64,000 nucleotides of DNA. Source: an uncultured Actinomycetota bacterium (GTDB taxonomy: Bacteria; Actinomycetota; Actinomycetes; Mycobacteriales; QHCD01). Shown here in pieces: positions 7,524-58,759 of the stretch (its first letter is position 1; every line of letters begins with the position of its first letter). The notes under the pieces are model-generated. The model ran no database searches. It saw only the letters and a list, made by a program, of their open reading frames with translations, and had not been told where the DNA came from. Made by a program: the position numbers and the translations under genes. Location of the stretch: contig CAVZJT010000007.1 of assembly GCA_963775655.1 (NCBI GenBank), positions 734 to 64,733 on the forward strand. The letters run 5' to 3'.

Positions 7524-9877
7524 TCACCGCACCTGCGTGAGCACCGTGTTGGACATGCCTGCGTTGGTGGTGTTGGTCGCGTAGTAGCGGTAGTCGGTGT
7601 TGGCGACGTAGCTCGTCATCCAGCGACCGCCGGCCGTGGCGGTGAGCGTCCGGCGAGCCGTGTAGCCCGGCACGTCCTTCTTCTTGAACCACACCCGGAT
7701 CGTCATTCCCGGCCGGGCGGTACCGACGATATTGACCGTCGAGCCGAGCGGGACCGTCGCCGGCCCCACCGTGAACGGCTTGATCTGAGTCAGGCCGTGC
7801 GGCGACATGCGTCCGCCGGAGGTGGCGTAGTAGCGGTAGTCGTTGTTGGCGACGTAACTGGTCGCCCAGTGACCGCTGCCATTGGCGTGCAGTCGACGGC
7901 GATTGGTGTAGTCGTCGGTGAGGTACTTGTGGAACCACACGTTGACGATCGCGTTCGGCGCGGCGGTGCCGCTCAACTCCACGCTCGTGTTGAGCTGGGC
8001 GAAGGCCGGCCCGGTGATGGTCACCGCCGGTCCGAGTGGAGTCACCGTGTTGGACGCCTTCGACGGCGCGGAGGGCCCGACCGAGTTGGTCGCGGTGACC
8101 TGGAACGAGTACTGGTCGCCGTTGGTCAGCCCGGTCACCGTGATCGGGCTCCCGGATCCGTCCGCGGTCTGGCCGCCGTGGCCGGGGTTGGTGTGATCAG
8201 TGGCCCGCACCGTGTACGAGGTGATGGCTGCGCCGCCGTCGTTGACGGGCGGCGTGAAGGTGACCGCGGCGGTGCCGTTCCCGGCGGTCGCGTGCGCGTC
8301 GGTCGGTGGGTCGGGCACGGTGACCGGGCCCATCGGCGTGACCGCGTTGGATTGCTCCGACGGGTCGGACGTGCCCACCCTGTTGGTGGCGGTGACCGTA
8401 AAGGTGTAGGTCGTGCCGTTGGTCAGCCCGTGCACCACGATCGGGCTACCCGGGCCGGTGGTCATCTGGCCGTCCAGCGGGGCCCGGCCGACGACCCGAC
8501 AACTCCGGGACACGCAGGGGGAGATCGCCTCGGCGGTCACGGTGTAGTGGGTGATCGCTGCCCCGCCGTCGTCCACCGGCGGCGTGAAGCTGACCGTCGC
8601 CTCCATGTGGCCCGCGAACGCGGTCACTTGGGTGGGTGCGCCGGGCACGGTCGCCGGAGTGACCGAGTTGGACGGATCCGACGGCAGCGATATCCCGTGG
8701 ATGTTCTTCGCGGTGACCGTGAAGGTGTACGCCGTGCCGTTGGTCAGACCGGGCACGGTGATCGGGCTGGCGAGTCCGCTGGCGGCTTTGCCGCCGGGGG
8801 ATGCCGTCACGGTGTAGCTGGTGATGGGTGCCCCGCCGGTGTTCACCGGTGCCGTGAAGGTCACTGCAGCGCTGGCGTTGCCGCCGGTCGCGTGCACGAG
8901 AGTCGGTGGGTGCGGCACCGTGCCCGGGGTCACCGTGTTGGAGACCGCCGAAGGCACCGAGTCACCGAAGGCATTCATCGCCTGGACGGTGAACGTGTAG
9001 TCGTCGCCGTTGTGCAGGCCGGTCACGGTGAGCGGGCTGCCGGGCCCGGTTGCGGTCTGGCCGCCGCGGCCCGGTTCGGTGGCATCGACGGCGAGCACGG
9101 TGTAGCCGGTGATCGGCGGGCCGCCGTCGTTCAGCGGCGGGGTGAAGGCCACGGCGGCAGACTGGTTCCCCGCGGTCGCGGTCACGCCGGTCGGCGGATC
9201 GGGGACCGTGCCGGGGATGACCGCGTTGGTCGGCGCTGACGGCTTCGACTTACCGAAGAAGTTCCGGGCGACGACGGTGAACGTGTAGCTGTCGCCGTTG
9301 GTCAGCCCGCGCACGGTGATCGGGCTCGTTACGCGGGTGGCGGTCTGCCCGCCGCGACTCGGATCGGTGTGGTCGGTCGCGGTGACGGTGTAGTCGCGGA
9401 TCTTTACGCCGCCGTTGCTCACCGGGATCTTGAACTTGACCAGGGCGTCGGTATTGCCCGCCGTCGCTTCGGCGCCGATCGGAGGTGCGGGCACGGTGCC
9501 CGGGATGACCGGGAAGGACGGCAGCGACGGGCGCGACGTACCGAAGAAGTTCCGCGCGGTGACGGTGAAGGTGTAAAGGTCGCCGTTGTGCAGGGTGCGC
9601 ACGGTCAGCGGGCTGGTCCGTCCGCGGCCGTCTGCCCGCCGCGCGCCGGATTGGTGAGATCGCGCGCGGTGACGGTGTAGCGGGTGATCGGGGCGAGGCC
9701 GCGGCGAGCCGGCGGGCTGAAGGTCACGGTCGCCTCGGCGTTGGCGGCCACGGCGTCGACGTTTCTCGGCGGGCCGGGCCGGCCGATCGCGTTCGGTGCC
9801 GGCGCGGCGGCGGCCGATCCCATCCCGAGCGTCTGCACTGATGCGGCGATGAGGATGGCGACAGACGCCACCTGCAT
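7524..9877 (-). pseudogene. Secreted protein with six fibronectin type III repeats and two C-terminal Ig-like repeats, one frameshift
   Basis: The signal peptide (MQVASVAILIAASVQTLGMGSAAA) and first FN3 repeat are in ORF 9605-9982; the rest is in ORF 7524-9602. The frames join inside the conserved GGQTA..SPLTV motif at ~9618 (one missing nucleotide). The repeated motif is P..NDGG..IT.YTV...GGQTA...SPITVTGLTNG..YTFTV.A.N. The C-terminal duplicated module carries YVAN.DYRYYAT. Confidence 0.85.
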
Positions 9878-9998
9878 GAAACGGATGCGTGGCACGATCC
9901 GACCCCCCGTCGGGTTACCCACCCTGAGTGGTCGAAGTATTACACAGCGCGTCCGACTTCCGGCGAGTCTCACGGGTCCCACCCGTTTCAGGGCTCCG

Positions 9999-10059
9999 AT
10001 TCCACGTCAACGTGACGTTGACGTGGCGAGAGCGCCGGAACGTCACGTTCACGCGGAAT
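9999..10059. repeat. Solo copy of the 61-nt palindromic unit (family A)
   Basis: Sequence is ATTCC-ACGTCAACGTGACGTTGACGTGG-CGAGAGCGCC-GGAACGTCACGTTCA-CGCGGAAT. Length and layout match the three units at 55136-55367. Confidence 0.75.
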
Positions 10060-10120
10060 GTGGGACCTATGCTTGCGGGACAGCTCGACTCTGCGTCGGG
10101 TTCCGGGGGCAGCCGTGGCC

Positions 10121-10798
10121 GTGAAAGCGCCGAGTGTGAGCCGCCAGCGATCCGCCGGCACGGCCGAGCCGCGGTGGCCGATGGCGCTGGCCATCCTCGC
10201 CTGCGGGGTCTTGCGGCTCGCCCTGCCGAAAGAACTTCGTGCCGGAGAAGCGTCCTGGCTCTTGCTCATCGTGGTCGCCGTCCTGCTCGGAATCCTCATG
10301 ATCGGTGACCCCGGGCGGATCGACCGCGATTCGACCTGGCTCCGGGTCATGACCGGATCGTTGATCGGCGTCATCACCCTTGCCAATACGGTCGGGGCGG
10401 TGCGGCTCGTGGCGAGCATCATCAGCACCGCGCCGTTCACCTCGGACGCCAACGTGCTGCTGGCGGCCGGCGGCGCGGTCTGGGCCTCCAACCTGATCGT
10501 GTTCGGGCTCTGGTACTGGGACCTCGATCGAGGCGGTGCGGCCGCCCGCGCCCGCGGAACGTCGGCCGCGCCCGCGTTCCTGTTTCCGGAGATGACCAAC
10601 CCGGACTTCGTCCGGCCGAACTGGTATCCGAAGTTCGTCGACTACCTCCATCTGTCCTTCTCGACGGCGACGGCGTTCAGCCCGACCGACGTGTCGCCGA
10701 TCAAACCGTGGGCGAAGTTGATGATGCTCGTCGAGGACGCGATCTCGCTGGTCGTCGCGTTGCTCGTCGTCGCCCGCGCGGTCAACATCCTGAAGTAG
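10121..10798 (+). CDS. DUF1345-family integral membrane protein
   Basis: The EPRWPMALAIL... N-terminus, four hydrophobic segments and the conserved YLHLSFSTATAFSPTDV stretch match the family. The start is uncertain (GTG 10115/10121/10136 or ATG 10058). Confidence 0.7.
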   Translation: MKAPSVSRQRSAGTAEPRWPMALAILACGVLRLALPKELRAGEASWLLLIVVAVLLGILMIGDPGRIDRDSTWLRVMTGSLIGVITLANTVGAVRLVASIISTAPFTSDANVLLAAGGAVWASNLIVFGLWYWDLDRGGAAARARGTSAAPAFLFPEMTNPDFVRPNWYPKFVDYLHLSFSTATAFSPTDVSPIKPWAKLMMLVEDAISLVVALLVVARAVNILK

Positions 10799-53748: not shown

Positions 53749-55125
53749 ATGCGCCGACGTCGTGGGCTCGTCGTACCGGCTGCGGTGGCGCTCGTCGTGG
53801 CGGCGCTCGTTGTCGCGGCGTGCGGGACCCGGCTGCCGGCGAGCGCGTTCGCCAGTCATCGGGGTGTCGGCTCTGCGTCTCCGTCGGGCCGGTCTTCCGG
53901 CTCGACGGGCAATGCCGCGTCCGACATCGGCGTGACACCTACCGCCGTCCGGGTGGGGATCGTGGCCAGCCTGACCAGCCCGTTGGGTGCCGAGGCGTTC
54001 TCCGGGCCGATGTACGGCGCGCGGGCGTTCTTCGATGCACTCAACGCGCGCGGCGGAGTGCACGGGCGGCGGGTGCAGGTCAGTGTCTGTGACGATGGGT
54101 CGAGCGGCTCGGGAAACCAGTCATGCGTGCACCACCTGATCGACGACACCAAGGTCTTCGCGCTCACCGCGACGACATCGCTGGACTACGCGGGGGCGCC
54201 GTACGTCGACGCCAAGGGCGTGCCGGACGTCGGCGGGCAGCCGGTCGGCAACGCGTACGACCAGTACCGCCACCTCTATTCGATCTACGGCAGCAACGAG
54301 CCACGCGACGGCACGGTCGGTTTCGGCGGCGTGCTCTACGGCGGCACCGAGGTCTATCGCTACTTCAAGGCGAAGCTCGGCGCGCGCACGGCCGGGGTCG
54401 TCTACTACAACCAGGCCGACTCGCAGCGGTTCGCGAGTCTGACGATGAAGAGCCTTGCGGTCGAGGGATACCGAGTCGTTCCCGAGCAGGTCGACTTCGC
54501 GCTGCCCAACTTCGACTCGGCCGCGCTGGACATGAAGGCGCGCGGTGTCGACGTGGTCTTCGATGCGCTGGATTCGAGCGGCAACGTCGACCTCTGCCGC
54601 GCGATGGACAACGAGTCGCTGAAGGTGAAGGCCAAGGTGACGACGGTGCAGAACTGGAATTCCTCGGTCCGCAAGGACTTCGCCGCCTCACCGGTGTGCC
54701 GCAATTCGCTGTACTCCACCGGGAACGACCGCAACTATTCGGACGAGAAATATCCCGCGGTCAAGGCCTTCCGCACCGCGATACACCGTTATTTGCCCAG
54801 TAGGGACGGCAAGCTGTCGATGTGGGAACTCGAGGGCTGGGCCGCCGCGCAGTGGCTCACCGACGCGATGACCTCGTGCGGTGCGCAACTGACCCGCGGG
54901 TGCGTCGAGAGCTACATGAACCGGGCGCAGCCCTACGACGGCCACGGCCTGCTCACCCCGCGCAGCTTCGTGGTGGGCCGGCATCCCGCCCGGCCGAGCC
55001 GCAACTGTCTGAACGTGGCGCGCTGGCAGGACTCGGCCGACGGCGGACGGGGCGGCTGGGTGACCCAGGTCCCGAACATGGACACCAACTGTTTCGTCGT
55101 ACCCAACGTCCCCTACCGCCCCTGA
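53749..55125 (+). CDS. ABC transporter substrate-binding lipoprotein, type I periplasmic-binding fold (Liv/branched-chain amino-acid type)
   Basis: The signal peptide with lipobox VVAAC and GVTPTAVRVGIVASLTSPLG...ALNARGGVHGRRV are typical of LivK-like binding proteins. Adjacent to LivFGHM-type genes. Confidence 0.8.
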   Translation: MRRRRGLVVPAAVALVVAALVVAACGTRLPASAFASHRGVGSASPSGRSSGSTGNAASDIGVTPTAVRVGIVASLTSPLGAEAFSGPMYGARAFFDALNARGGVHGRRVQVSVCDDGSSGSGNQSCVHHLIDDTKVFALTATTSLDYAGAPYVDAKGVPDVGGQPVGNAYDQYRHLYSIYGSNEPRDGTVGFGGVLYGGTEVYRYFKAKLGARTAGVVYYNQADSQRFASLTMKSLAVEGYRVVPEQVDFALPNFDSAALDMKARGVDVVFDALDSSGNVDLCRAMDNESLKVKAKVTTVQNWNSSVRKDFAASPVCRNSLYSTGNDRNYSDEKYPAVKAFRTAIHRYLPSRDGKLSMWELEGWAAAQWLTDAMTSCGAQLTRGCVESYMNRAQPYDGHGLLTPRSFVVGRHPARPSRNCLNVARWQDSADGGRGGWVTQVPNMDTNCFVVPNVPYRP

Positions 55126-55135
55126 CGCCGCGCCG

Positions 55136-55367
55136 ATTCCGCTTGAACGTGACGTTCAAGCGCTCTAGCCGCATGAACGTCACGTTGAGGCGGAATGGGG
55201 GGGCGGCGGCCGCCGCCATTCGGCTTGAACGTCACGTTCAAGCCTTCTAGTGGCATCGACGTCACGTTGATGCCGAACGGGGCGGCGACTCGAGTCGGCG
55301 CGCCCCATTCCGCTTGAACGTCACGTTCAAGCGCTCTAGCCGCATGAACGTCACGTTCACGCGGAAT
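55136..55367. repeat. Three tandem 61-nt palindromic units (family A) separated by GC-rich palindromic spacers
   Basis: Units lie at 55136-55196, 55218-55278 and 55307-55367. Each has the layout ATTCCGC-TTGAACGT(C/G)ACGTTCAA-GCGCTCTAGCCGC-ATGAACGTCACGTT..-GCGGAAT. The spacers contain GGCGGCGGCCGCCGCC and CGACTCGAGTCG. Confidence 0.85.
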
Positions 55368-56085
55368 GGGAATGGGAATGGGAATGGGGACGGGGGCGGC
55401 GGGGGCCGAGGAGTACGTCGGCGCGGGCGCCGGTCAGCTCACCGGGTTCGCCGACGAACGCCACCTCGCCGCGGCGGAGGACGTAGGCGATGTCGGCGAG
55501 CCGGAGCGCCTGCCCGACGTACTGCTCGACGAGCAGCACCGACCGGCCGGGCTCCCGCGCCAGGTCGGCGACCACGTCGTAGAGCCGCGTCACCACCTGC
55601 GGCGCCAGCCCGCGACTCAGTTCGTCGAGTAGCAAGACCTGCGACGGACGGAGCAGCGCCCGCGACAGCGACAGCATCTGCCGCTCACCGCCGGACAGGC
55701 TGCCGGCGCGTTGGCCCAGCCGGCCCCGCAGCACCGGAAACACTGCCAGCGCCGGGTCGGGCGCACCGCCATCGCCGAACACGGCGAGGTTGTCCCGTAC
55801 CGACATCGTGGCGAAGACGCCGTGCTCGTCGGGGAGCAGCGCGAGCCCGTGACGCACCCGGTCGTACGCCGGCAGCCCACTCACGTCCTCGCCGTCCCAG
55901 CAAACCGCACCGGCGGTCAGCGGAAGCAGCCCGGCCAGGACCCGCAGCGTCGTCGTCTTGCCCGCGCCGTTGTGACCGAGCAGCGCGGTGATCCCGCGGG
56001 CGGGTATGGCGAGGTCGATGCCGTGCAACACCTCCAGCGGCCCGTATCCGGCCCGCGCGCCGCGCAGCGCGATCCCGGCGCTCAT
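55357..56085 (-). CDS. Branched-chain amino-acid-type ABC transporter ATP-binding protein (LivF-like)
   Basis: Walker A GHNGAGKTT, signature LSGGERQM, Walker B LLLDELSRGL. The last ~11 codons and the stop (TCA 55357-55359) lie inside the microsatellite and the family A unit. Confidence 0.85.
   Translation of the reverse strand: MSAGIALRGARAGYGPLEVLHGIDLAIPARGITALLGHNGAGKTTTLRVLAGLLPLTAGAVCWDGEDVSGLPAYDRVRHGLALLPDEHGVFATMSVRDNLAVFGDGGAPDPALAVFPVLRGRLGQRAGSLSGGERQMLSLSRALLRPSQVLLLDELSRGLAPQVVTRLYDVVADLAREPGRSVLLVEQYVGQALRLADIAYVLRRGEVAFVGEPGELTGARADVLLGPRRPRPHSHSHSHSA
55365..55388. repeat. Hexanucleotide microsatellite (AATGGG)x4
   Basis: The microsatellite is contiguous with unit 3 of the family A array. 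On the minus strand it encodes the HSHSHSHS tail of the ABC ATPase. Confidence 0.9.
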
Positions 56086-56852
56086 GGGCCGCTCCGCGAG
56101 AAATAGATCTCCTGCGCGGCGGGATCGGCGGCGACCTCGGCCGGGGTACCGGACACCACGACCCGGCCGGCGGCCATCACGTAGACCCGGTCGGCGACGT
56201 CGAAGACGAGGTCGACGTCGTGCTCGACGAGCACGATGGTCCGGCCGTCGTCGGCGAGACCGCGCAACACCTCCCGCAGCGCGCCGATCTCCCGGTCGTC
56301 AAGACCGCTTGCCGGCTCGTCCAGCAGCACCGCTGCCGGATCGGCGGCCAGGGCCCGGCCGAGCTCGACCATCCGCAGCGTGCCAGTCGGCAGCGCGCCG
56401 GCGGGGGTGTCGCGTAAGCCGCCGAGTCCCAGCAGATCCAGCACCCGCTCGACCGACGCGTCGACCGATCGCCGCGCCGGGTCGGGGAGCCCGAGCAGCC
56501 CGGCCAGGATGCTGCCGGACCGGCGGTTCTCGGCGCCGACCCGGATGTTGTCGGCCACCGTCATGGTGGCGAAGACCGCGAGCTCCTGAAAGGTGCGGGT
56601 CAGGCCCAGCCGGGCCCGGGCGTCGGTGCTGGCATCGGTGATGTCCCGATCGCCGAGCAGCACCCGTCCCCGGTCGGGACGTTCGAACCCGGACAGGCAG
56701 GCAAACAGCGTCGTCTTGCCGGCGCCGTTGGGCCCGATGAGAGCCGTGACGTCGCCGGGCACGGCGTCCAGATCGACGCCGTCCACGGCGTGCACGCCGC
56801 CGTAACTCCGGGCGATCCCGCGGACCCGCAGCGCCGCACCCGGCCCGGTCAT
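56082..56852 (-). CDS. Branched-chain amino-acid-type ABC transporter ATP-binding protein (LivG-like)
   Basis: Walker [25 protein letters not shown], Walker B VLLDEPASGLD. ATG 56852 overlaps the permease stop (ATGA). Confidence 0.85.
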   Translation of the reverse strand: MTGPGAALRVRGIARSYGGVHAVDGVDLDAVPGDVTALIGPNGAGKTTLFACLSGFERPDRGRVLLGDRDITDASTDARARLGLTRTFQELAVFATMTVADNIRVGAENRRSGSILAGLLGLPDPARRSVDASVERVLDLLGLGGLRDTPAGALPTGTLRMVELGRALAADPAAVLLDEPASGLDDREIGALREVLRGLADDGRTIVLVEHDVDLVFDVADRVYVMAAGRVVVSGTPAEVAADPAAQEIYFSRSGP

Positions 56853-58759
56853 CGGCGTATCCGGGCGGCGACGGCCCGCCCGGCAGGCGAGAGCTGTACC
56901 GCCGGTGCAGGTACGGCGCCCCCGGGTGCACGCCACCATCGACCCAGCGAGCTGAGCACCCCACCGGGCATCCGGCCGAGCAGCACGGCCAGCGCGCCGA
57001 TCACCACCGCGGACGCGCCCGCACCGAACGCACTGTCCAGCCCCACGACCAGGGCCGCGGCGAGTACGGCGCCCGCCGCACTGTCGGCGCCGAAGACCAC
57101 CACCGCGGCGAACCACAGCAGCGCCTGGATCGGGTCGAACGACGCCGGGTCGAAGGACCGGGTGCTCATCGCCAGCAGCGCACCGCCGAGCGCGGCAAGT
57201 CCGGAGCTCACCGCGAAGACGAAGACCTTCGTCCGGCCCACGTCGACGCCGCAGACGCGCGCGCCCAACTCGCTGTCGCGGATCGCGAGCAGGCCGCGGC
57301 CGAGCCGACCGATGTGCAGGTTGCGTACGACGAGCAGCGTCACGGCGAGAGCGACGACCTCCAGTGCGTAGAACGCGCGGTCGTCGGAGAAGCCGGCCGG
57401 TCGGTTCACGGCCAGGCCGGTGGTGAACAGCGGCTGCTCGAGGACGAAGCGGCTGATCACCATGCCGACCGCCAATGTGGTCAGCGCCAGGAACAGCCCG
57501 CGCCGCCGGATGGCCGGCCACCCGGTGAGCAGACCGACCGGCGTCACGAGCAACGCGCCGACCACCAGGGCGAGCAGGCCCGGGAACGCCGGCAGGCCGA
57601 AGAGCTCACCGCTGCCCAGCCGGGCGACGAGCAGCGCACCGAGTCCGGCGAATCCGGCCTGGCCGAGGGAGATCTGACCGCTGTACCCGGTTACCGCGAC
57701 GAGCGAGAGGAAGACGATGGCGAGGGCCGGGATGGTCAGGGCGGGTCGTAGCGCGGAGTCGGAGAAGAGCAGCGGAAGCGCGAGCAGCGCCGCTCCGGCC
57801 GCCCAGCCCCGGCGCAGCGGAGCGCCCGGCCGACGTCGGGCCAGCGCGGCCGCCACCCCGGCGTCGCCACCGACCTCCCGGAGCCGCGGCAGCAGCAGGA
57901 TCGCCGCGAGCAGCACGACGACGAACAGGTTGGCCTGCAGCGACTCCACCAGTTGCCCGGCCTGACCTCCGACGTGGACCGCCGTGAGCTCGCTCTGCCC
58001 GATCCCGACTGCGAGGGCGGCGACGATGGCCACGGTGATCGACGACAGCCGGGCGACGACCACGACGCCCACCGTCTCGAGGACGACGAGCGTCAGGCCG
58101 TAGGGGTCGAGGCGTAGCCGGGGAGCGAGCAGGACCCCGGCCAGTCCGGCGAGGAAGGCTCCGAACGCCCAGCCCACGGCGGACACCCGGTCGGCGTCCA
58201 CACCGGACAGTTCGGCGAGCTCCCGGCGGTCGACGACCGCTCGGACGGCGACGCCGAATCGGGTCGCGTGGGTGACGCTCGCCAACAGCGCGGTGATCGC
58301 GGCCGCGACGGCGAGGTCGACGACGGTGTCCAGCCGGACGCTCGCGCCCAAGGGCAGGGACAGTGAGCGGATGGGAACGAGAGAGGGGGCGTCGACCCGC
58401 GACTGCCCGCCCCAGATAGCGAAGGCGATCCCGACCAGCAGGACGAAGACCCCGATCGAGGCGACCAGCTTTTCCGCCGGACTCGCTCCGCGGCGCTCGA
58501 GCCGCCGGAAGACGACCCGGTCCAGCAGCACACCCAGGCCCGGGCCGACGAGGAGCAGATCGACCGGCGCAGCGACCGCCAGCGGCCACCCCCACACTTC
58601 GACCATCTGCCAGAGCAGATAGGCGACGAGCATCGCGATCGCCCCGAAGGCGATGTTGAAGACGCCGGTGGCGCGGTAGGTGGCGAGCAGGCCGAGTCCG
58701 GCGAGTGCGGCGATGCTGCCGATGGCGACGCCGGCGATCGCGAGGTCGACGGCCAGCAT
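56849..58759 (-). CDS. Fused LivH-LivM-type ABC permease (single 636-aa polypeptide)
   Basis: The N-terminal half is LivH-like (GVFNIAFGAIAMLVAYL...). The C-terminal half is LivM-like (GYSGQISLGQAGFAGLGA...). There is no stop or frame change between the halves. ATG at 58759. Confidence 0.8.
   Translation of the reverse strand: MLAVDLAIAGVAIGSIAALAGLGLLATYRATGVFNIAFGAIAMLVAYLLWQMVEVWGWPLAVAAPVDLLLVGPGLGVLLDRVVFRRLERRGASPAEKLVASIGVFVLLVGIAFAIWGGQSRVDAPSLVPIRSLSLPLGASVRLDTVVDLAVAAAITALLASVTHATRFGVAVRAVVDRRELAELSGVDADRVSAVGWAFGAFLAGLAGVLLAPRLRLDPYGLTLVVLETVGVVVVARLSSITVAIVAALAVGIGQSELTAVHVGGQAGQLVESLQANLFVVVLLAAILLLPRLREVGGDAGVAAALARRRPGAPLRRGWAAGAALLALPLLFSDSALRPALTIPALAIVFLSLVAVTGYSGQISLGQAGFAGLGALLVARLGSGELFGLPAFPGLLALVVGALLVTPVGLLTGWPAIRRRGLFLALTTLAVGMVISRFVLEQPLFTTGLAVNRPAGFSDDRAFYALEVVALAVTLLVVRNLHIGRLGRGLLAIRDSELGARVCGVDVGRTKVFVFAVSSGLAALGGALLAMSTRSFDPASFDPIQALLWFAAVVVFGADSAAGAVLAAALVVGLDSAFGAGASAVVIGALAVLLGRMPGGVLSSLGRWWRAPGGAVPAPAVQLSPAGRAVAARIRR

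Follow-up and report, generated by a model that had tools for sequence, protein, structure and literature searches.

A dispersed REP/BIME-like palindromic repeat at the 3' end of a livF-like gene in an uncultured Actinomycetota bacterium

Introduction

Repetitive extragenic palindromic sequences (REPs), bacterial interspersed mosaic elements (BIMEs) and REPINs are, in the surveys that describe them, short palindromic modules present in many copies (PMC2817692, PMC3116915, PMC3733652). GTAG and CGTC tags define two REP super-families, and the Rickettsia palindromic elements (RPEs) RPE-4 and RPE-6 are classed as CGTC REPs (PMC3733652). On RNA, Escherichia coli REPs block 3'-to-5' decay, help termination and stall ribosomes within 15 nt of a stop codon (PMC5082802). 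Here we describe a comparable element in a 64,000-nt stretch of contig CAVZJT010000007.1 (assembly GCA_963775655.1; hereafter the window) from an uncultured Actinomycetota bacterium, in which an array of palindromic units at 55136-55388 separates a binding-protein gene from a convergent livF-like ATP-binding cassette (ABC) ATPase gene. We conclude that the array very probably represents three copies of a lineage-specific, non-coding, dispersed REP/BIME-like palindromic repeat, an ancestral unit of which became fused to the livF reading frame.

Fusion of such repeats to gene ends has been documented for ERIC/RU-1, RU-2 and RU-3 (Delihas, 2007; PMC2759123) and for QMITE1/2 of Coxiella (PMC5896051). 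These fusions add from a few to about 35 residues past the conserved domain (PMC2759123, PMC5896051), and one ERIC/RU case is an ABC transporter ATPase, ECA4072, lengthened by four residues (PMC2759123). For enhC of Coxiella, translation enters the repeat in one strain, whereas in another the stop codon immediately precedes the repeat (PMC5896051). The latter contrast parallels that between the window and an orthologous locus, L003, described below. [quoted passage not shown]

Mycobacterial interspersed repetitive units (MIRUs) are said to be actinobacterial intergenic tandem units of about 50-100 bp whose copy number varies between strains; they are reportedly non-palindromic, 46-101 bp long and situated between co-transcribed genes, with small open reading frames (ORFs) overlapping both neighbors. 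By this account MIRUs resemble the present repeat in being actinobacterial tandem intergenic units whose ends overlap neighboring stop or start codons, and, going by description only, differ from it in that our units are dyad-symmetric and about a third of the arrays lie between convergent genes. RPEs are reportedly selfish repeats carried in frame in coding sequence, inserted inside genes and adding internal segments. The present repeat would be like them as a palindromic repeat incorporated in frame into protein-coding sequence, and unlike them in that its capture is C-terminal, with only 2 of 66 arrays possibly intragenic.

Results and Discussion

The array belongs to a dispersed repeat family

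Direct reading of the window confirmed three 61-nt units between the two convergent genes, as first described from the sequence (Table 1). On the plus strand the core is ordered ATTCCGC, 17-nt palindrome, 13-nt middle (GCG-CTCTAG-CCGC), 17-nt palindrome and GCGGAAT, where the palindrome is TTGAACGT-N-ACGTTCAA. In the livF orientation unit 3 comes first and contains the livF stop codon, and unit 1 comes last, beginning 10 nt past the stop codon of the binding-protein gene. Both spacers contain the GC palindromes attributed to them, a perfect 16-nt GGCGGCGGCCGCCGCC in spacer 1 and CGACTCGAGTCG in spacer 2, and spacer 2 is homologous to the spacer following a half unit in the related locus L082. 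The array ends, as proposed, in (AATGGG)4. Tandem Repeats Finder returned a period of 89 with 2.8 copies (55127-55370) along with 4.3 perfect hexamer copies (55363-55388), and a repeat search of the array recovered 11+1+11 palindromes and 30-nt inverted arm pairs. Folding of the array is far more stable than that of shuffled sequences on both strands (z about -9.9). The sequence AACGTNACGTT occurs seven times in the window versus 0.01 expected; two of the seven occurrences lie in a fourth, solitary unit some distance from the others, and the units are thus not confined to the array.

Table 1. Coordinates of the repeat array and associated features. Positions in the window refer to the 64,000-nt stretch; L-numbers denote related loci.
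Sequence	Feature	Position	Strand	Basis
Window	Convergent periplasmic binding-protein gene (Peripla_BP_6)	53749..55125	+	Pfam
Window	Unit 1, type A, 61-nt core	55136..55196	-	direct reading, nhmmer (80 bits on minus strand)
Window	Spacer 1, G-run then C-run	55197..55217	.	direct reading
Window	Unit 2, hybrid near type B	55218..55278	-	direct reading, profile match, alignment
Window	Spacer 2, GC-rich	55279..55306	.	direct reading, repeat search
Window	Unit 3, type A	55307..55367	-	direct reading, profile match
Window	livF stop codon TGA, in first palindrome of unit 3 (the one nearest livF)	55357..55359	-	direct reading
Window	livF-like ABC ATPase gene, 242 aa (ABC_tran)	55357..56085	-	ORF reading, Pfam
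Window	(AATGGG)4, (CCCATT)4 on the coding strand	55365..55388	-	Tandem Repeats Finder
Window	Solitary fourth unit, diverged variant	9999..10059	+	
Related loci	Genes ending in SAST and a stop codon	L001 10714, L004 3376 (livF orthologues); L014 2778; L059 5172; L063 247; L078 1798		
Related loci	Spacer motif sites	L016 2069-2095; L041 727-752; L060 6646-6703; L001 10764-10789; L059 5221-5237		
Related loci	Terminal-arm duplications	L037 5100-5130; L053 2700-2730; L073 5085-5115; L062 1850-1880; L004 3415-3430		

A scan of one genome per species for the 19-mer TTGAACGTSACGTTCAAGC returned at least 73 loci, and about 60 among the matches listed came from two long-read soil metagenome-assembled genomes (MAGs), MFD00822.bin.2.25 and MFD05442.bin.3.622, which are labelled "uncultured Actinomycetota bacterium". 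Both derive from the Microflora Danica Nanopore study (PMC12313526). One close LivF relative carries the label Mycobacteriales bacterium. In about 0.7 Mb of related loci, a profile made from eight units detected 111 units (98 full and 13 half) in 66 arrays. The alternative that the units are unique to this locus therefore fails, and the family has more than 100 copies in related genomes in addition to the fourth copy in the window. Based on the arrays found beyond those that triggered locus retrieval, the density is about one array per 60-80 kb, which extrapolates to on the order of 100 arrays per genome. Matches to TTGAACGTSACGTTCAAGC in Saccharothrix/Actinosynnema, Mycobacterium, Schlesneria and others were rejected as members; they encode LNVTFK in conserved genes and show no unit architecture. 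The repeat had no matches in a viral collection, and none in a metagenome collection that evidently does not include the JGI samples known to carry the element. A literature search for the core sequence returned an unrelated primer as its sole match. No curated RNA family in Rfam 15 matches the units: across the whole window there was no match at gathering score, and at E<=10 there were only sub-threshold hairpin-type matches (miRNA precursors, for example).

Units are head-to-tail dimers of a palindromic module

Half units consist of a single palindrome between both outer arms, which indicates that the basic module is the 31-nt palindrome ATTCCGC-TTGAACGT-G-ACGTTCAA-GCGGAAT. The middle of a full unit starts with the first bases of the right arm (GCGG/GCCG) and ends with the last of the left arm (CGC/GGC); the full unit is therefore a head-to-tail dimer of the module joined via a CTAGA linker, and for this reason the middle helix changes with the outer helix. 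Centre-to-centre spacing of the two palindromes is constant at 30 nt. In the 98-unit alignment, the type A consensus in the livF orientation is CCATTCCGC-ATCAACGTGACGTTGAT-GCGG-CTAGAG-CGC-TTGAACGTGACGTTCAA-GCGGAATGG, and a second subfamily, type B, reads CCGTTTGGC-...-GCCG-CTAGAA-GGC-...-GCCAAACGG. The differences between the two are fully compensated (arms ATTCCGC/GCGGAAT with middle GCG/CGC versus GTTTGGC/GCCAAAC with GCC/GGC), and intermediates carry GTTCGGC/GCCGAAT, GTTTTGC/GCAAAAC or ATTTGGC/GCCAAAT. Unit 2 of the window is among the intermediates. It has the compensatory changes noted in the original prediction, ATTCGGC/GCCGAAC with GCC/GGC (on the minus strand GTTCGGC...GCCGAAT, middle GCCA-CTAGAA-GGC), and comparison with the other copies indicates that these mark the second subfamily and not local evolution of that copy.

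Short modules (31 nt here) in many copies, clusters with recurring spacer motifs and species-specific variants are all features shared with REPs and BIMEs. A recurring spacer motif, GCGCGGAAAG..CCGGAAA..GCCGACCCC, was found in several arrays (Table 1); between type A units it takes the form GCGCGGAAAG..TTCCGGAAA..GTTGCCGACCCC, a mosaic organization reminiscent of BIMEs. Unlike REPs, the 98-unit consensus has no unpaired GTAG or CGTC tag at either end, and CGTC appears only at the paired palindrome centre, on the opposite strand. Unlike REPINs, in which the dimer is inverted, the dimer here is head to tail, and unlike BIMEs the units of an array are co-oriented rather than alternating.

Three fold models were compared on the 98-unit alignment. 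The fold originally proposed, in which an outer helix encloses two hairpins and a short middle helix, pairs 94.3% of cells and is backed by family-wide covariation (0.172, compared with 0.078 for shuffles and at most 0.048 with partners slid). Two-sided changes were observed at 14/75 (AU 55, GC 20), 17/72 (CG 65, UA 22), 18/71 (CG 65, GC 22, UA 4), 23/36 (CG 68, GC 23) and 41/49 (GC 61, CG 31), counts behind which stand few independent events, since the copies are related. A model of two separate extended hairpins pairs 94.1% of cells and is worse for recombinant A/B units, with 25 discriminating cells unpaired versus 12 for the four-helix fold; it was set aside, though not firmly. A single long hairpin of the REPIN kind pairs 82.6% of cells and leaves the discriminating pairs unpaired in 71-85 of the 98 units. 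It was rejected for most units, and units 1 and 3 of the window can adopt it. Copy-specific pairing of the flanks, suggested by visual inspection in which many units looked bracketed by complementary C-rich and G-rich sequence, was also rejected, with true pairs no better than shuffled ones (duplex energy p = 0.26; in-register matches p = 0.69).

The repeat supplies the stop codon and tail of livF

The proposal that the ATPase takes its stop codon and tail from the repeat was borne out by the reading of unit 3 and the adjoining hexamers. LivF of the window ends in ...LLGPRRPRPHSHSHSHSA, and its (His-Ser)4 is encoded by (CCCATT)4 together with CATTCC of the unit. Translation extends 16 nt into the matched envelope of unit 3, which is 11 nt into the 61-nt core, and a second in-frame TGA (55351-55353) follows six bases beyond the stop codon. 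When a unit is read co-oriented, only one frame stops within it and the other two pass through all 61 nt. The extent of the donated end could be refined: the microsatellite and unit account only for the final nine codons plus the stop codon, while the preceding GPRRPRP is native to the clade, because its C-rich coding stretch is also present in L003, which keeps its own stop codon.

Comparison with LivF orthologues shows that the His/Ser tail is not a native part of the protein. Those at 56-71% identity stop about 15 residues sooner in the alignment, either at ...LFD or in short unrelated tails, and close relatives differ from the window and from each other. Past ...LLG(P/R)RRP these relatives carry PHSHSHSHSA, PHTHSHSA, PHSHSA, RSDSA, RSAST, RHSAST, RRPE or a frameshifted PIPRQRDIHAEWRAD (Table 2); the tail of protein P0129, PRRPRSDSA, is known from protein sequence alone. 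At the DNA level, seven of the eight relatives examined take their tail from the first repeat unit, with the same layout in L079 and L084. The TGA of L003 lies 28 nt before the matched envelope of its first unit and 42 nt before the ATTCCGC arm.

Table 2. LivF tails, repeat units and hexamer copies at nine orthologous loci (orthologues at >=82% identity; 1 to 4.5 units each, read from DNA).
Locus	Tail	Units	(CCCATT) copies
Window	PRRPRPHSHSHSHSA	3	4
L005	PRRPHPHTHSHSA	at least 1	2, plus 2 decayed
L079	RRPHPHSHSA	2	2
L084	RRPHPRSHSA	2	1
L082	PRRPRPIPRQRDIHAEWRAD, other frame through half unit	4.5	0
L083	RRGGTRSAST	1	0
L004	PRPRSAST	1.5	0
L001	RRPPRHSAST	2	0
L003	RRPRRPE, own stop codon	2	0

Both repeat levels vary among relatives. 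Unit number ranges from 1 to 4.5 and hexamer number from 0 to 4, and the hexamer changes length in frame, as anticipated, from (CCCATT)2 in L005 and L079-L081 to (CCCATT)4 in the window. Among the units found, (CCCATT)n with n>=2 occurs at this locus only, in 2 or 4 copies. The tail and units recur in independent assemblies, namely JGI metagenomes (L004, L005, L079-81 and L083) and NCBI GCA_036497565.1 (L084), and an artefact of the Nanopore MAG assemblies is thereby excluded.

In L082 (2200-2244; protein P0128), livF passes through a half unit in the other frame, giving a 247-aa protein that ends in PIPRQRDIHAEWRAD, so that this single orthologous site yields frameshifted tails besides in-frame ones. 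Several loci also show a duplicated terminal arm and flank at unit ends (for example, GCGGAATGGGGAGG twice or GAATG twice; Table 1), and the hexamer expansion of the window may be one instance of a general instability of unit termini. In L079 (3810-3880), L084, L004 and L082, a spacer of about 125 nt separates units at the same site and contains an imperfect 22-nt inverted repeat, cgacatcgtgcgccgtactcgc ... gcgagtagaacgcacggtgtcg; this spacer is missing from the window, where unit 2 occupies its place.

We propose that an ancestral unit downstream of livF was joined to the reading frame, probably via loss of the gene's own stop codon and a short spacer, both retained in L003. Translation would then enter the unit and stop at the TGA in the first hairpin, and the terminal CCCATT hexamer of the unit would subsequently have expanded by slippage to give a (His-Ser)n tail of variable length. 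This tail is probably no more than a neutral by-product. An adaptive role in which tail length tunes the ATPase, for example through metal binding or contingency-type variation, would be in keeping with the (HS)2, impure and (HS)4 forms among orthologues at least 90% identical and with a hexamer that preserves the frame. We find such a role hardly credible, given that close relatives without His-Ser carry RSAST, RSDSA, RRPE or a frameshifted tail, that unrelated genes receive arbitrary tails from the same unit, and that the conserved part of the ABC domain ends before the tail.

Capture of gene tails is not restricted to livF. A stop codon lies within a unit in 11 confident genes, 8 of which enter from the 5' side of the unit, and six genes of five different kinds (two being livF orthologues) end in ...SAST and a stop codon (Table 1), read from the first palindrome of the unit as (C)ATTCCGCATCAACGTGA or its type B equivalent. 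Tail capture by the repeat is thus recurrent, involving about one array in six. The shared SAST terminus, together with a tail that includes a hexamer microsatellite from the repeat end, distinguishes this repeat from ERIC/RU and QMITE.

Genomic context and evolution of the arrays

Gene calls in the related loci came from a codon-usage method trained on those loci; for L001 they matched the public ones. About 20 arrays lie in convergent, 30 in tandem and 8 in divergent contexts, and 64 of the 66 arrays are outside predicted genes. As with REPs, the units are almost all extragenic, favor gene 3' ends and place stable hairpins near stop codons. Units within an array share orientation, with the exception of two arrays involving half units. 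The flanks show only a generic bias, to C on the left and to G on the right. Two units lie inside long predicted ORFs (L054 730-799, with read-through ...PLRINVTLMWLERLNVTFKRNEEG..., and L056 4597-4660), and these may be in-frame intragenic copies or simple gene-caller artefacts.

On RNA, the stable structures would act as a two-way 3' barrier or stabilizer between convergent genes, as REPs do elsewhere. They may also slow translation termination, as the stop codon of livF falls within a helix and that of the binding-protein gene precedes one by 10 nt. An alternative is that the unit functions as a structured RNA of one strand, as a small RNA or a cis-regulatory element of the 3' UTR, and acts in one orientation only. 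The unit is indeed directional (about 80 bits on one strand versus about 55 on the other), its predicted stability is very high, and a G-T pair at the edge of the first palindrome in 24 of the 98 units would be a G-U pair on that strand only. This G-T variant, however, is the dominant subtype of one genome and probably reflects a single event, and orientation in tandem contexts is random (15 units co-oriented with transcription, 14 opposed). With eight arrays between divergent genes and no Rfam family at gathering score, we consider a strand-specific RNA highly improbable.

The two MAGs share arrays at orthologous sites with differing unit counts, the 500-nt flanks showing 83-96% identity (mostly 84-92%). 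Identity is 91% between orthologous unit cores, whose immediate flanks are unalignable. Where orthologous units differ, the changes are often compensated pairs, and the units resemble the subtype of their own genome, with a different first-palindrome variant dominating in each. These genome-specific subtypes indicate concerted evolution or constraint.

Units are also found at the edges of kilobase-scale insertions or deletions that distinguish the two MAGs. Units adjacent in L053 (2594-2706) are 4.2 kb apart in L054 (730-4913), separated by a two-component system and ABC genes, and units adjacent in L062 (1868-2005) are 1.7 kb apart in L008 (1370-3175), separated by a truncated ABC ATPase ORF. 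In L069 (5076-6236; MFD00822, contig_86001), the central CTAG of a unit is the exact site of an insertion sequence (IS) of about 1.1 kb that encodes an rve-type integrase and is flanked by CTAG at either end: ...GCGCT CTAG precedes CTGTACTTGGCC at one junction, and GGCCGAGTACAG precedes CTAG GCGCATC... at the other. Units thus serve as IS targets, as REPs do.

A conventional miniature inverted-repeat transposable element (MITE), with ATTCCGC/GCGGAAT arms as terminal inverted repeats for a DDE transposase encoded elsewhere, could account for units at the borders of such insertions and deletions and for an outer 7-9-nt inverted repeat that is present in every unit and whose two arms co-change between subfamilies. 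No target-site duplication is visible, however, and the C-rich and G-rich flanks are not direct repeats. The related loci searched contain no longer element with the same ends and no parent IS, the only IS seen (that of L069) has different ends and sits inside a unit, and same-orientation arrays, short spacers and half units are atypical of MITEs. We regard this origin as improbable.

Weighing the interpretation

Several observations weigh against our interpretation of the array as copies of a REP/BIME-like repeat. The 11-nt core AACGTGACGTT is nearly invariant, as sequence-specific binding by a protein would explain better than a role in structure alone. Template switching or gene conversion between copies can produce compensated changes in inverted repeats with no selection involved, and covariation is therefore no proof of a folded functional form. 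Because array positions are orthologous across MAGs, recent mobility is not demonstrated. A Y1/HUH profile (seeded with IS608, ISDra2 and two Sulfolobus TnpA proteins, from which RAYTs are distant) detected nothing in six-frame ORFs of 703 kb, covering less than 10% of each genome, and Pfam searches of ORFs between or beside units returned no relevant domain. Scanning 54800-55700 on both strands for T-run terminators found none, the scan being blind to terminators without a T-run. The effects on RNA discussed above are, finally, ones that we infer.

The core invariance bears on the possibility that the primary role of the 17-nt palindromes is to bind a dimeric protein, for instance a nucleoid-associated protein, regulator or domesticated recombinase, on DNA. 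Across about 200 palindromes AACGT-N-ACGTT shows almost no variation while flanking stem positions vary, and the constant spacing would place two sites about three helical turns apart and permit cooperative binding. There is no orientation preference with respect to transcription, as expected for a feature of double-stranded DNA, and E. coli REPs and BIMEs bind proteins (PMC2817692). Most sites, however, are at gene 3' ends or between convergent genes and not at promoters, and the compensated variation of the outer helix, middle helix and palindrome edges is unneeded for a protein site. No candidate protein was identified, and part of the invariance stems from ascertainment through the search pattern, with second-palindrome conservation inflated as the loci were retrieved with that sequence. 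LexA and parS boxes, whose spacing and sequence we take to differ, were set aside. A primary role in protein binding is unlikely, and it is compatible with the REP/BIME-like repeat rather than exclusive of it; the alignment does suggest AACGTGACGTT as a candidate recognition core.

A more specific proposal is that the units form the first REPIN-like system to be described in Actinomycetota, made of vertically inherited head-to-tail dimers that a dedicated protein keeps uniform within each genome by recognizing the invariant AACGTGACGTT hairpin or cruciform. Rewriting of host C-termini would be a side effect, and a domesticated HUH or another structure-specific enzyme might fill the role of that protein. 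We consider this doubtful. The element is REP/BIME-like and not a demonstrable member of a REPIN-RAYT system; no RAYT gene was detected by the Y1 profile in the 703 kb searched, the seeds being distant from RAYTs.

We therefore retain the REP/BIME-like repeat, units of which populate the intergenic DNA of an uncultured clade of soil Actinomycetota, singly or in same-orientation arrays and mostly at gene 3' ends.

Other features of the window

The livF-like gene is the final gene of an operon that also contains a fused livH/livM-type permease gene and livG. A mechanically called 479-aa ORF (56082-57521, minus strand) that overlaps livG has a long, implausible N-terminal extension, and the livG-like gene was placed at 56082-56852 (256 aa) on the basis of codon usage and orthologous loci. 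A weak minus-strand ORF (9605-9922) and a plus-strand gene (10115-10798) flank the 192-nt gap that holds the solitary fourth unit. The middle of this unit is GTGG-CGAGAG-CGC, and its first palindrome, CACGTCAACGTGACGTTGACGTG, is perfect owing to three internally compensated changes.

Conclusions

The repeat family is new, with unusual head-to-tail dimers in same-orientation arrays, and both the kind of element and its effect on gene tails are already documented. Since both are known from elsewhere (ERIC/RU, Coxiella), the finding opens no new question. It adds an undescribed palindromic repeat family from an uncultured actinobacterial clade, in a phylum barely represented in REP-type surveys; unlike the hosts surveyed, the host is actinobacterial, and Actinobacteria go unmentioned in the REP and RAYT surveys consulted (PMC2817692, PMC3733652). 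If the REPIN-like proposal were true, such a system would repeatedly rewrite host C-termini, giving SAST tails and a His-Ser tail of variable length. The livF site provides a natural series at one orthologous position: a gene with its own stop codon, a stop codon in the repeat, frameshifted read-through and a growing in-frame microsatellite. For annotation of this clade, C-termini ending in SAST or (HS)n should be read as derived from the repeat.

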